From the NCBI GenBank assembly GCA_964343575.1, contig CAYFJV010000002.1, positions 319,585 through 383,584 of the forward strand: a stretch of DNA of 64,000 nt. Reading direction: 5' to 3'. Positions 3,551-48,322 of the stretch are shown here, one piece after another; the first letter of the stretch is position 1, and each line of letters begins with the position of its first letter. The position numbers and the translations under genes were made by a program. The notes under the pieces were generated by a model. It searched no databases and was not told the DNA's origin. It worked only from the letters and a program-made list of their open reading frames with translations. The DNA comes from an uncultured Methanosarcinales archaeon. GTDB lineage: Archaea; Nanobdellota; Nanobdellia; Woesearchaeales; GW2011-AR9.

Positions 3551-4342
3551 ATGAAAAAGAGGGTGATCATTGCAGATGTTGATGAAACTATTTGTGAGAC
3601 TACACAAACTGTAAGTCCCCATATGGCTAAATTGGTGGAATCTTTTATTTCTGCAGGCCATACTTTTGCTTTTATTAGTGGTACTAAAGAGAGTTACATG
3701 ACTGAGATGCTGAGCTCCCAACTACAAGGAAAACATTTCTTGCTTCCTTGTACAGGGATGCTTTGTATAGAAGCGGAAAGTGGTGAAAAGAAAACTGTTT
3801 ATGAGAATCTTCTTTCTGCTGCTGAACGTAAAGAGGTTATGGAGGCTCTTGAAGAGCTCGTTAGTTACTTTAACATTATTACTTTGACTACCAAGGAAGA
3901 TCAAATTCAAGATAGGGGGGCTCAAATTACTCTCTCTCCAATTGGTCGTAGTGCCCCAATTGAATTGAAGAAGAAATTAGATCCAGACGGAAGCAAAAGG
4001 AAGATTTGGGTAGCCCATCTTAAAACTCTTCTTGACCCCAAAAAATATGATATGACTATTGCTGGGACAACTTCAATTGACATTACCAGAAAAGGGTTAG
4101 ATAAGGGCTGGGGTATCAAGAATTTTTGTGAGCATTATGACATTGATTTGCAGGACGTTTTATTTATTGGGGATAAAACATACCCTGGGGGGAATGATTA
4201 TGCTGCAACACAAGTTGTAGATTTTATCTCTGTAAAAAACCCTGATGGGGCTTATGAAAAATTAAAGGAAGTTTTTAGTGGTGATTTTAGTTCTCTCTCA
4301 CCAGCTCTTGGAGTTTTCCCTGATCATAAAGTTGTTCAGTGA
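3551..4342 (+). CDS. HAD-IIB hydrolase, phosphomannomutase (PMM)-like
   Basis: ADVDETI (DxD), SPIGR and FIGDKTYPGGND motifs. The true start is probably ATG 3551, because the longer ORF overlaps the 5S rRNA. Confidence 0.85.
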   Translation: MKKRVIIADVDETICETTQTVSPHMAKLVESFISAGHTFAFISGTKESYMTEMLSSQLQGKHFLLPCTGMLCIEAESGEKKTVYENLLSAAERKEVMEALEELVSYFNIITLTTKEDQIQDRGAQITLSPIGRSAPIELKKKLDPDGSKRKIWVAHLKTLLDPKKYDMTIAGTTSIDITRKGLDKGWGIKNFCEHYDIDLQDVLFIGDKTYPGGNDYAATQVVDFISVKNPDGAYEKLKEVFSGDFSSLSPALGVFPDHKVVQ

Positions 4343-4601
4343 TATCGCAACCGCCAATGAATTGTTCGTTGATGTAAAGCTGGGGAATGGTTGGCCAATG
4401 AGCGTATTCTTTAATCCCTTGGCGAATGTTTGGATCGCTAAGCACGTTGAAGGATCCAAAGTCTATGTTTAAAAGTTTAAGGATGTTGACAACTCGCATA
4501 GAAAATCCGCACTCGGGAGCTTCTGGTGTTCCTTTCATAAAGAGAAATACTTTTTTGCTTTTGATCATGTTTGTTATTCTTTGTTTGAGTTCTTCATTCA
4601 T
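4287..4601 (-). CDS. grxD: Monothiol glutaredoxin (Grx4/GrxD, CGFS)
   Basis: FMKGTPEAPECGFS, WPTIPQLY and GGCD motifs; start MNEELK at 4601. Confidence 0.95.
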   Translation of the reverse strand: MNEELKQRITNMIKSKKVFLFMKGTPEAPECGFSMRVVNILKLLNIDFGSFNVLSDPNIRQGIKEYAHWPTIPQLYINEQFIGGCDITEQLYDQGKLQELVREN

Positions 4602-4628
4602 TTTGATCTCTCCTTTGTTTTCTTTTTT

Positions 4629-4761
4629 GAGTGTGTTCATCAGGCGAGAAGACCCGGGGCACTCTTGTTCGCCAGTAGCTTTTTTCTTGAGCAAGAAAAA
4701 AAGGGCCTCCAAGAGGATCGCTTCTTGTTTTCTTTGGCCCCGCAAATTGATGAACACACTC
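4629..4761. ncRNA. Structured intergenic element, copy 1 of 3 (putative ncRNA/cis-element)
   Basis: Perfect 14-bp closing inverted repeat GAGTGTGTTCATCA/TGATGAACACACTC around a CTCTTG...CAAGAG core shared with 12126-12249 and 48130-48260. Confidence 0.6.
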
Positions 4762-4774
4762 TTTTTTGAACAAG

Positions 4775-5029
4775 TTATTCTTCTCTTGTCTCAATCCCTA
4801 AGGCATGTACTTCTTCTTTAAGTTCTTCTTCTAAACACTTGTAAACCATTCTGTGTTGCTCAATGAGGGATTTGCCTTTGAAGAGCGGGCTGATGACAAC
4901 TGCTTTGATATGGATTTGATCTTTTCTTGGATCAAGGATCTCTACCTTTGCTCCAGGAAGTCCTTGCTCGATCTTCTTTTTGATCATCTCTAATTTTGCT
5001 AATCCTGACATAGGGTTTAGGAAGTGCAA
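4775..5029 (-). CDS. bolA: BolA/IbaG family protein
   Basis: HIKAVVISPLFKGKSLIEQHRMVY...EVHAL; adjacent to grxD. The start may be a downstream Met. Confidence 0.92.
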   Translation of the reverse strand: MHFLNPMSGLAKLEMIKKKIEQGLPGAKVEILDPRKDQIHIKAVVISPLFKGKSLIEQHRMVYKCLEEELKEEVHALGIETREE

Positions 5030-10426: not shown

Positions 10427-10611
10427 TTTTTCACCTCAGTCATTTTTTTCCGTATACTTGGAAGAATGTAATAAGCAAGCAGGGCGGTAAAGGCGAGCAC
10501 GAGCCAAAAAAGCAAAGGGTCCGTGATTTGCATTGCAAACAAAACTAGGTTGAAGACGAGTAGCACCGTTAGAATAACCGCAGCGATTTTGAGTGATTGT
10601 TGCTTTTTCAT
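10423..10611 (-). CDS. Small two-TM membrane protein
   Basis: Two hydrophobic segments; 4-nt overlaps with hisS and the next gene. Confidence 0.65.
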   Translation of the reverse strand: MKKQQSLKIAAVILTVLLVFNLVLFAMQITDPLLFWLVLAFTALLAYYILPSIRKKMTEVKK

Positions 10612-11894
10612 TTTTCTTTTTTTAGTATTTTTACTGCTTCTTTACTTGTGATCAGTTTCTCTTCACCACTGTTAAGGTCTCGGAGCAAGAGCTTCTTTTG
10701 TTTTGCTTCTTTTTCTCCGATGATTACTGCAAAGGGAATACCAAGAGCGTTTGCGTATTGTAGGTTTTTGCTCAGGCCTTTTTTCCCTAGTGCAAAGTCA
10801 GTGGCAATGCCAGCTTTTCTTAGCTCTTGTGCAATCTTGAGTGCCTTTGCGCTTTCTATGAGGGGAATTACAAGTACGCTGGCCGGAGTTTTTACTGCCT
10901 TATCTTTACTTTGTTTAAGTGCTTCAACTATGGGAACAAGTCCAAAACTTACTCCCACTGCAGGCACTTCTCGTTTTCCTCCAAGAAAACCACCTACCAT
11001 GTCATCGTAACGTCCCCCTCCTGCAATGGAAGAAGTAATTTTGCTCTCCTTAAGAAAGGCTTCAAGCACAGTTCCTGTGTAATAGGCCTGTCCCCTTGCT
11101 AAAGAAACATCAAACTTGTTGCTTTTTACCCCCATCTCTTTGAGATAAGAAAAGAGTTCTTCTAACTCTTTGAGCCCTTCTTTTCCTTCAGAGTTGGTTA
11201 TTTTTTTCTTCAGTTCTTTGATTGTTGTGGCTTTGCTTATGATCTCTAATACTTCTTTTGTTTGTTTTGTGCTGTAGCCTCTTTCTTCTAACTCTTTTGC
11301 AACACCTTTTTTCCCGATCTTATCTAACTTGTCAATCGCAATGACGGCTTCTTTTCTTTTTTTGATGCCAGCCTGATTAAGGATGCCATTGAGAACTTTT
11401 CGGTTGTTAATTTTAATTTCAAAGTTGAAGTTGAGTTCTCTGAACACTCCATCAAGAATGGCAATTTGTTCTGCTTCGGCGAGCATACTTTTTGTTCCAA
11501 TGGTATCTGCGTCACATTGCCAAAATTGTCTTGTTCTTCCTAGTTTAATTGGTCCGTCTCTAAAATTTGGGCCCATTTCATAGCGTTTGAAAGGCATTTT
11601 AATGGTTGGATTCATAGCAATGTATCTTGCAAGAGAAGTGGTAAGCTCGAATCTGAGCGCAAGCTTTCTTTTCCCTTGATCAGTAAATTGAAAGGTTTCT
11701 TTAAGTACGTCACTTCCTGCTCCTGCTCCGAACTTTGCAGCAAGGGTTTCGTATCTTTCGATGATAGGTGTCTCTAGGGGAGCGAAACCATACTTTTCAA
11801 AGGTTTTTGAGATGATATTTACTACTTTGTTTTTGAGTATTTTTTCTTCTGGACTAAAGTCTTTAACTCCTTTTGCTAATTGAAATTTTGCCAT
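10608..11894 (-). CDS. hisS: Histidyl-tRNA synthetase
   Basis: KGVKDF, LRFELT, RQFWQCDAD, ARGQAYYTG, GGGRYD; anticodon-binding domain. Confidence 0.97.
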   Translation of the reverse strand: MAKFQLAKGVKDFSPEEKILKNKVVNIISKTFEKYGFAPLETPIIERYETLAAKFGAGAGSDVLKETFQFTDQGKRKLALRFELTTSLARYIAMNPTIKMPFKRYEMGPNFRDGPIKLGRTRQFWQCDADTIGTKSMLAEAEQIAILDGVFRELNFNFEIKINNRKVLNGILNQAGIKKRKEAVIAIDKLDKIGKKGVAKELEERGYSTKQTKEVLEIISKATTIKELKKKITNSEGKEGLKELEELFSYLKEMGVKSNKFDVSLARGQAYYTGTVLEAFLKESKITSSIAGGGRYDDMVGGFLGGKREVPAVGVSFGLVPIVEALKQSKDKAVKTPASVLVIPLIESAKALKIAQELRKAGIATDFALGKKGLSKNLQYANALGIPFAVIIGEKEAKQKKLLLRDLNSGEEKLITSKEAVKILKKEK

Positions 11895-12125
11895 TTTGAA
11901 ATCTCCTTGAACATTTTATTGTTCTTTTGTCTCTTATAATTCTTTGTTTTTTGATGAAAGCCTCTTTAATCTAGCTAGCAATGCAGGAGAATCTTTAAGT
12001 TGACACTAGAAATGTTGAGAAGTTTAGTTGTTTGTTTGCCGATGATGAATACAATCAGCCCCGGTTTGTGTCATGCTAGGTAGGGGGCTTGTGTTTTATT
12101 TAAAGTTTTACTTGTGTTTTTATCC

Positions 12126-12249
12126 TTGGCGCTGGGCGGAGCGGGGCCAGAGGTACTCTTGTCCGCCGGTAGCTTTTCTTTCAGAAAAGGGCTCCCAAGA
12201 GCTTCGCTGCTTTCTTCTCATTTTCCCAGCAGAGACGCCAGCGCGCCAA
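12126..12249. ncRNA. Structured intergenic element, copy 2 of 3
   Basis: Closing stem TTGGCGC/GCGCCAA; core ACTCTTGTCCGCC...CTTTTC/GAAAAG...GGCTCCCAAGAG. Confidence 0.6.
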
Positions 12250-12269: not shown

Positions 12270-12345
12270 TGGGGCGATCGGGGGGAATTGAACCCCCGTC
12301 TCCGGATCCACAGTCCGGAATAATAACCATTATACGACGATCGCC
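12270..12345 (-). tRNA. tRNA-His(GTG) with encoded G-1 and CCA
   Basis: Cloverleaf with anticodon arm CCGGA-CTGTGGA-TCCGG and 8-bp acceptor GGCGATCG/CGATCGCC followed by CCA. Confidence 0.95.
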
Positions 12346-47561: not shown

Positions 47562-48071
47562 TTACTCCTTAAACAACTCAATTGCTTTCTTTACTTCTTC
47601 TTTAATTCCTTTCAGACAATCATACTGTTCTACTTCATCAACATTAACCCAAGCATGATCGGTAAACCCACCTTCTTCTAAAACAACATCTCCAGATTTG
47701 TACTTTGCAGCAAGTTTGACCATCATTACAGGAATGCCATCTGCTCTTACAAAAGCAACACTGGTGATATACTTGAAGTCGTCGTGTAGTTCAATGCCTG
47801 CTTCTTCACGAGTTTCTCTTTTCAAAAGATCTTCTAGTGCGCCTACGAAATCGTAAATATCTCCATTCATTCTTGTAGGGTTATTAAGATCAAGATCTTT
47901 CCATTCAAGTTTGCCACCTGGCGTTGCATACTTTCCTGGATGCGCTTTTTCTCTTTCATGTCTTTTGAGAATTAAACATCTTCCATCTTCTCTGTATACC
48001 AAGACGTTTGCTACAAAGTAAAAGAGCTTATTTTGTTTAGCATGTTCTGTAGAAATCTTTTCAGCTGGCAT
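47562..48071 (-). CDS. NUDIX hydrolase
   Basis: PGGKLE...LKRETREEAG. Confidence 0.9.
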   Translation of the reverse strand: MPAEKISTEHAKQNKLFYFVANVLVYREDGRCLILKRHEREKAHPGKYATPGGKLEWKDLDLNNPTRMNGDIYDFVGALEDLLKRETREEAGIELHDDFKYITSVAFVRADGIPVMMVKLAAKYKSGDVVLEEGGFTDHAWVNVDEVEQYDCLKGIKEEVKKAIELFKE

Positions 48072-48129
48072 GTTTTGCTTGAAGGTGTTTTTCTATTTAT
48101 GTTTTGTTGTTTCTTGGTTTTTTGTTTTA

Positions 48130-48260
48130 TTTGTGGCGCTTGGCCAGGCGGCTCCTTAAGAACTCTTGTCCGCTTTCCCTTTTCCTTAACAGGAAAAGAG
48201 CTTCCAAGAGCATGGTTGCTTGGTTCTGCTGTTGCCGCAACCAGGCAAGCGCGCCACAAA
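48130..48260. ncRNA. Structured intergenic element, copy 3 of 3
   Basis: Closing stem TTTGTGGCGC/GCGCCACAAA; core ACTCTTGTCCGCT...CTTTTCCT/AGGAAAAG...AGCTTCCAAGAG; TGGTTGC/GCAACCA hairpin. Confidence 0.6.
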
Positions 48261-48322
48261 GGTTGTTCTTAGGATTTGTTGTTGCCGAAACGCTTATATA
48301 CGGTAAAATGTGTTCTTGAAGC

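Follow-up and report, generated by a model that had tools for sequence, protein, structure and literature searches.

The closest described analogue of the repeats reported here, among the accounts available to us in excerpt, is bcr1 of the Bacillus cereus group, a MITE-like element of ~155 bp that is flanked by 5-bp direct repeats, is transcribed and carries compensatory changes (PMC3184786). According to the same excerpt, bacterial MITEs of the ERIC and Correia types can lie inside transcripts (PMC3184786). MITEs are also known from archaea, with Sulfolobus, Halobacterium, Haloquadratum and Desulfurococcus named in the part of the literature consulted, which describes MITEs as AT-rich (PMC10969869). 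For a Woesearchaea genome, the consulted sections of a census give ~105 MITEs per Mb as bulk counts and treat orphan elements as 'old' MITEs (PMC11602168). A published description of the family presented below, or of its orientation behavior, was not found, and the supplements of that census may already list it (PMC11602168).

We analyzed a 64,000-nt stretch of an archaeal contig (C2:319585-383584, hereafter the window) in which a first-pass annotation had described three copies of a candidate structured RNA. The three elements were found where it had placed them, all on the minus strand (Table 1). The layout it had read from them (CUCUUG, a 3x3 purine internal loop, a GCY:RGC helix, a 4-5-nt bulge, a U-run:A-run hairpin and CAAGAG) was correct in all three, as was the change from GCC:GGC to GCU:AGC. 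The 14-bp closing stem described for copy 1 was also present, though its outermost pairs are formed by flank bases that belong to the direct repeat TCAAAAAAG. The set of three, by contrast, had to be enlarged. A regular-expression search of the source genome (1.21 Mb in 6 contigs, 95%-complete, with C1 and C2 as the large contigs) gave four copies beyond those of the window, and a covariance model built from the seven-copy alignment (model R1) identified 17 copies with E values from 8.7e-28 to 3.4e-5, eight on C1 and nine on C2, which is well beyond chance. A second covariance model (R2) was rebuilt on all 17 copies.

Table 1. Elements, flanking repeats and neighboring genes in the window (positions count from its first letter)
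Feature	Position	Strand	Evidence or remark
Copy 1, short variant, 130 bp	4631..4760	-	covariance model E 1.6e-21; P1-to-P1' core has the same limits
5' copy of 9-bp direct repeat TCAAAAAAG by copy 1	4761..4769	-	9/9, offsets 0,0
3' copy of 9-bp direct repeat TCAAAAAAG by copy 1	4622..4630	-	
Copy 2, subfamily A, P1-to-P1' core	12128..12247	-	covariance model E 8.7e-28
Copy 3, subfamily A, 163 bp between flanking repeats	48112..48274	-	covariance model E 3.6e-26; P1-to-P1' core 48135-48255
5' copy of 9-bp direct repeat AACAACAAA by copy 3	48275..48283	-	9/9
3' copy of 9-bp direct repeat AACAACAAA by copy 3	48103..48111	-	
bolA-like gene, directly upstream of copy 1	4775..5029	-	PF01722, E 7.8e-16
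Glutaredoxin gene (grx), directly downstream of copy 1	4287..4601	-	PF00462, E 8.8e-20; bolA partner in relatives
tRNA-His, upstream neighbor of copy 2	12270..12344	-	
hisS	10608..11894	-	start 233 nt downstream of copy 2; true start set by alignment with a relative
NUDIX gene, downstream of copy 3	47562..48071	-	PF00293, E 3.2e-11

Full-length copies measure 162-166 bp between flanking repeats and copy 1 measures 130 bp, which leaves no room for a transposase gene inside the element. The GC content of the copies is 0.44-0.61, compared to ~0.40 for the genome. The family comprises three subfamilies (A, B and C) and one short variant, copy 1 of the window. Subfamily A has eight copies, window copies 2 and 3 among them, with a P1 of the GGCGCGCUGGCG type; subfamily B has four copies with outer arms GGCTCTGTCCTAAGAGA; and subfamily C has four copies with outer arms (G)GCTCTGTAGAAAAAGTC. 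One subfamily A copy, C1:126749, bears B-type arms. The element body is an imperfect palindrome in which the outer arms are followed by P1, P2, an asymmetric A-rich internal loop and P3 (CUCUUG/CAAGAG), and inward from P3 by the 3x3 purine loop, P4, a bulge and the P5 hairpin; in copy 1, CTCTTG...CAAGAG spans 4662-4715. The best conserved part is the central core with its unpaired bases rather than the termini, the reverse of a typical MITE. A second module, a ~52-nt double hairpin (..AAGAAAT-loop-ATTTCTT.., then an A/T-run hairpin), is nested in three element copies (C2:57227-57308, C1:578955-579133 and C1:419184-419260), twice within P5, at separate places, and once within the 3' part, and stands alone at C1:22671 and C1:388451; four of its five occurrences share one genome-strand orientation.

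In the 17-copy alignment, which was fitted to the model and hence leans towards it, 90.3% of cells were paired, compared to 39-49% when the 3' partners were slid; 22 of the 30 pairs had changed on both sides, and none of 500 shuffles reached the observed measures. Within subfamilies, and leaving out ten pairs without a clear paired consensus, double changes kept pairing in 31 cases and broke it in 3, while single changes kept it in 14 and broke it in 11. This excess of pair-keeping changes indicates that pairing in the hairpin is actively maintained. The first-pass claim of a real repeated family, with one common fold kept by compensatory changes, was thus borne out by both counts. The same asymmetric loops occur in all subfamilies, arguing against a separate birth of each by palindromization. 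Templated repair within the quasi-palindrome could also keep the arms complementary.

Maintained pairing raises the question of whether the copies are independently transcribed, trans-acting structured RNA genes with a GC-rich core that binds protein or is catalytic, riding in or domesticated from mobile DNA. We consider this unlikely. The stems co-vary around a core that is conserved, unpaired bases included, the copies are GC-rich for their genome, and subfamily A is without transposon ends, all of which would suit an RNA gene, as would the rate at which paired columns depart from the subfamily consensus, about half that of unpaired columns (0.12 vs 0.25 in subfamily A, 0.11 vs 0.24 in B). 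On the strand read by the first-pass annotation, G:U/U:G cells also outnumber A:C/C:A cells by 35 to 10, but 15 of these 35 come from three doubtful pairs. Folding energy, tried as a pointer to the functional strand, was equal on both strands with RNA and DNA parameters in a comparison of 16 copies that left out the disrupted plus-strand copy C1:419084; with RNA parameters, mean minimum free energies were -45.36 vs -45.30 kcal/mol and the top strand was more stable in 9 of the 16. Single-sequence folding z-scores for window copies 1-3 were uneven (-4.28, -0.45 and -2.83 for the top strand; -5.49, -0.47 and -4.08 for the bottom strand), so this type of folding neither proves nor orients the structure. 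Further against RNA genes, the element contains no conserved promoter, the adjoining TATA-like boxes are positioned as promoters of divergent neighbors in at least two cases, no Rfam family matches, and the family was not found outside the genus in the genomes searched (0 of 39 from other genera of the same family).

The first-pass annotation had not recognized a known family, and the Rfam searches agreed, with no match to any of the 17 copies. With Rfam 15 at gathering scores, a 5S rRNA and two tRNAs were matched in the window and the elements were not. Under permissive settings, the best score around copy 1 was 18.3 bits against a gathering score of 55, with all cut-offs at least 36, and 16 copy-bearing loci returned neighboring tRNAs only. 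Two tRNA genes on C1, of 127 nt (L020 2344-2470) and 112 nt (L018 2146-2257), lie ~1 kb or less from copies and probably carry introns. Several motif assignments were also rejected. A bulge-helix-bulge splice motif at the outer stem would have its bulges on the wrong sides. The K-turn layout is a 3-nt bulge plus tandem G.A, unlike the symmetric 3x3 loop found here. tRNA-like, split-tRNA and H/ACA readings failed on an absent T-loop and an ACA box that is not consistent.

Full-length copies have terminal inverted repeats starting GGCTCTGT, which the subfamily-specific outer inverted repeats have in common. Outer stems are perfect over 11-21 bp in subfamilies B and C and in copy 1, whose own ends AGTGTGTTCATCA / TGATGAACACAC serve as inverted repeats; in C1:548246 and C1:409375, the left end agrees with the right at 17 of 22 positions. 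The end words occur at no site in the assembly other than the copies. We also scanned for 9-bp flanking direct repeats at roughly symmetric offsets, using 272 mismatched upstream/downstream flank pairs as the null. Four of the 17 copies have repeats matching at 9/9 and three further copies at 8/9, compared to 2/272 and 21/272 null pairs, respectively. The four perfect repeats are AACAACAAA, TCTTCTTCC, GTTAAGAAG and TCAAAAAAG, of which AACAACAAA is the weakest because it is of low complexity. Six of the seven good repeats sit 18-22 nt outside P1, giving elements of 162-166 bp, while that of copy 1 is at offset 0, giving a 130-bp element with TCAAAAAAG directly at both ends. Outer inverted repeats are absent in seven of the eight subfamily A copies, and a convincing flanking repeat is likewise absent in seven of the eight, though not the same seven. 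Among the window copies of this subfamily, the outer arms of copy 3 are degenerate and those of copy 2 not recognizable; copy 2 has no recognizable flanking repeat, its best match in the scan being 7/9.

Among relatives, all 11 family-level loci with a grx ortholog have bolA as its upstream neighbor, and in 10 of these the two genes are separated by anything from an overlap to ~40 nt (tblastn coordinates). Here the spacer is 173 nt, of which the element accounts for 130, the duplicate of the 9-bp repeat for 9 and ordinary spacer for the remaining ~34. Judged by these spacings, copy 1 is an insertion that split a conserved bolA-grx pair. The eleventh locus (L082, G014:C1, 1804-2242) carries a 436-nt insert with two small back-to-back ORFs and no MITE, so this junction has been struck by insertions more than once; our impression is that the two ORFs resemble a toxin-antitoxin-type pair. 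At copy 2, which begins 22 nt downstream of tRNA-His, the spacer between tRNA-His and hisS is 375 nt, compared to 94 nt in the same-genus genome G002, where it contains no element. The 233 nt from copy 2 to hisS (window 11895-12127) have no counterpart in the 94-nt spacer of G002 and hold a GC-rich inverted repeat, AGCCCC...GGGGCT, around a 16-codon ORF.

A second same-genus genome, G001, has one diverged copy (E 1.8e-13; model R2 with thorough scoring). This copy is found downstream of the ortholog of C1:125424-126641; in the source genome, copy C1:126749 is instead upstream of that gene, and no relic was found in the source genome at the site matching the G001 copy. The closest relatives are ~63-72% identical in DNA. 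Taken together, the flanking repeats, the enlarged spacers and the G001 site show past mobility. The inverted pair C1:419084(+) / C1:421636(-) was considered as a composite transposon and rejected, as the interval, with a GNAT gene, a tRNA, an NFACT gene and two unknown ORFs, holds no obvious cargo.

Other searches for relatives found no further family member. With model R2 and thorough scoring, no copy was found in G002, G003, G012 or G029. Model R1 gave no match in 60 relatives, in a weak scan that missed the G001 copy later found with R2. Model R2 gave none in 39 other-genus genomes of the family and only two chance matches without the core in 150 order-level genomes; these wide scans scored 23-88 of several hundred first-look candidates per genome and are hence weak negatives. 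The covariance-model search proposed by the first-pass annotation has thus yielded 17 copies in this genome, one in a congener and none in the other genera searched. The element was in none of 30 metagenome loci around hisS relatives (best identity 68%). The core pattern had 14 matches in genome contigs, all in bacterial MAGs, with one partial fit to the model at E 0.085; as the matches do not fit the model, we attribute them to chance. In viral contigs, the core pattern and an end word had one match each and the model had none.

The copies are nearly uniform in orientation, 16 of the 17 lying on the minus, C-rich strand (7/8 on C1 and 9/9 on C2; two-sided binomial P ~3e-4). On the plus strand, G exceeds C in every 60-kb bin of C1 and C2, and T exceeds A in all but one, in bins averaged over plus- and minus-strand genes; third-codon GC skew is positive in plus-strand letters for genes of both strands. 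Cumulative G-C climbs monotonically over the 665 kb and 485 kb of C1 and C2, and the GC skew never changes sign. The sole orc1/cdc6 gene (C2:93430-93687) lies inside C2 without a skew switch there. Copy orientation follows the chromosome strand and is independent of neighboring genes. For many IS families, the part of PMC3971601 available to us documents an orientation that is biased with respect to replication.

Two alternatives take this orientation as their starting point. First, the family could be a hairpin element that moves or is fixed via single-stranded DNA at the replication fork, like IS200/IS605-type or REP-type elements, its orientation being the footprint of that process. Such an origin would agree with the 16 of 17 copies on one strand, with their independence of gene orientation, with the coinciding one-signed strand asymmetry genome-wide and with an element that is, as a whole, a hairpin with conserved extrahelical bases. 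To our knowledge, however, IS200/IS605 and REP elements have neither 9-bp target duplications nor terminal inverted repeats, and both are present here, while Y1 transposase and TnpB were not found in the assembly (PF01797 and PF07282, 0 matches); we therefore regard this origin as quite improbable. Second, the copies could be a host DNA signal for chromosome polarity, replication or segregation, an oriented site merely spread by transposition. The near-uniform orientation along both large contigs, the constant sign of the GC skew even around the single orc1/cdc6 gene, and the 4 of 17 copies that lie around this gene within C2:57-112 kb are compatible with such a role. The reading is nevertheless purely inferential and very unlikely, with just 17 unevenly spaced sites in 1.2 Mb, a single diverged copy among the two congeners searched, no copy in the other genera searched, and no binding protein known.

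Gene context was mixed. According to crude ORF calls, six of the 17 copies lie between divergent genes, six are tandem and co-oriented with their neighbors, five are tandem but anti-oriented, and no copy sits between convergent genes; the genes next to the copies are functionally unrelated. The placement upstream of a minus-strand gene that had been noted for the three window copies holds for those three and does not extend to the rest. This bears on the proposal that the element is a cis-regulatory RNA, such as a leader or processing signal, for the downstream same-strand gene, here grxD, hisS or NUDIX. Each of the window copies does precede a co-oriented gene, and copy 1, within bolA-grx, would be co-transcribed if the pair is an operon. 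Across the family, however, five of the 17 copies are antisense to both neighbors and six have divergent genes on either side, and position, sense and neighbor function vary among copies in a way that a cis-regulatory leader or riboswitch would not, so a gene-linked role does not fit. Nor do the equal energies of the two strands and the gene-independent orientation support a cis-regulatory RNA. Even within the window, copy 2 is 233 nt from hisS, the orthologous spacer of G002 lacks the element, and copy 3 is separated from the NUDIX start codon by a TATA-like box. We consider cis-regulation extremely improbable. Two different NUDIX genes (C1:421811-422338 and that of the window) each directly adjoin a subfamily A copy, which is probably a coincidence.

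TATA-like boxes were common next to the full-length copies. Five of the six with good repeats (C1:409375, C2:73983, C2:223895, C1:618046 and C1:548246, none of them in the window) have, upstream of the 5' repeat, a TATA-like hexamer whose start is 8-14 nt away, compared to a background of 4.5% of 73,211 intergenic positions; as the distance window was picked with the data in view, the nominal P of 1e-6 exaggerates the significance. At two copies at least, C1:409375 and C2:73983, ~27 nt separate the TATA-like box from the divergent neighbor's start codon, and the element borders that gene's promoter on its upstream side. These placements suggest that insertion favors promoter edges.

We propose that the family is probably a lineage-specific, non-autonomous DNA transposon of the MITE-like kind. 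Its transposase, absent from this assembly, would have been supplied in trans. By cutting the target with a 9-bp stagger, this enzyme would have produced the 9-bp target-site duplications; most insertions would be into intergenic DNA that bears promoters, and many within a few bases of a TATA box. The enzyme would be of the DDE type. IS5-family (IS903-group) and IS4-family elements have 9-bp target duplications and short terminal inverted repeats and would be possible mobilizers by duplication length, but such a transposase was not found in the genome; the families PF01609, PF13737, PF00872, PF01797 and PF07282 had no match in the 95%-complete assembly. Subfamily A copies, including window copies 2 and 3, may be older or immobilized, with decayed outer arms. 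We infer that the hairpin matters when single-stranded, whether as DNA at the replication fork or in transposition, or as read-through RNA, a state that would explain both the compensatory changes and the near-uniform strand orientation. The option of a non-autonomous mobile element, listed among others in the first-pass annotation, was therefore close to the mark, and the finding it had named as telling against a new RNA family, a MITE, is the one to which the terminal inverted repeats, the 9-bp duplications, the 17 copies and the bolA-grx insertion point.

Some observations stand against a MITE. The near-symmetric ends of a cut-and-paste element do not by themselves explain 16 of 17 copies on one strand, no transposase was found in the assembly, most subfamily A copies are without ends or repeats, the core is better conserved than the termini, and the copies are GC-rich. 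A more speculative version, to which we give little credence, has a polar element of hairpin form oriented by the replication fork, combining unusual or unidirectional replication, a single-stranded hairpin step and insertion at the upstream edge of TATA boxes. For annotation, the family illustrates how, in a tiny archaeal genome, covarying transposon copies can be mistaken for a 'new RNA', and its covariance model and end/target signature can be used to annotate such repeats in Woesearchaeota-type genomes. The one-strand orientation matching a GC skew of constant sign, and the TATA adjacency, are not explained by an ordinary MITE model; both results bear on the replication of uncultivated archaea and on the targeting of mobile DNA in compact genomes.

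The family has the size of a MITE, the lack of an internal transposase gene, terminal inverted repeats, a target-site duplication of fixed length and multiple copies at non-orthologous sites. An autonomous IS with the same ends was not found in this assembly; given the census class of 'old' orphan MITEs, a missing partner IS does not exclude membership. Like the archaeal MITEs described in the excerpts available to us, the family is non-autonomous, bounded by inverted repeats and intergenic, while its covariation, strand orientation and promoter-edge placement are not described for them in those excerpts (PMC10969869, PMC11602168), and its GC-rich copies differ from MITEs as AT-rich elements (PMC10969869, in the part consulted). 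With ERIC and Correia-type MITEs, as far as the consulted portion of PMC3184786 covers them, it shares an intergenic imperfect palindrome of ~100-160 bp, inverted-repeat ends and target duplications. Those elements differ in their TA-type targets and in RNA-level effects via RNase E or RNase III, and one-strand orientation and TATA-edge placement are not reported for them in that portion (PMC3184786). From bcr1, as excerpted, the family differs in several respects: bcr1 is bacterial, has 5-bp repeats, is transcribed and folds into a cruciform-like double stem-loop (PMC3184786), whereas the present family belongs to a DPANN-type archaeon, has 9-bp repeats, is known from DNA alone and forms one long hairpin. 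Within the scope of the same excerpt, the two nevertheless have in common a similar size, short flanking direct repeats, a distribution that varies between relatives and a stem kept paired by compensatory changes (PMC3184786).
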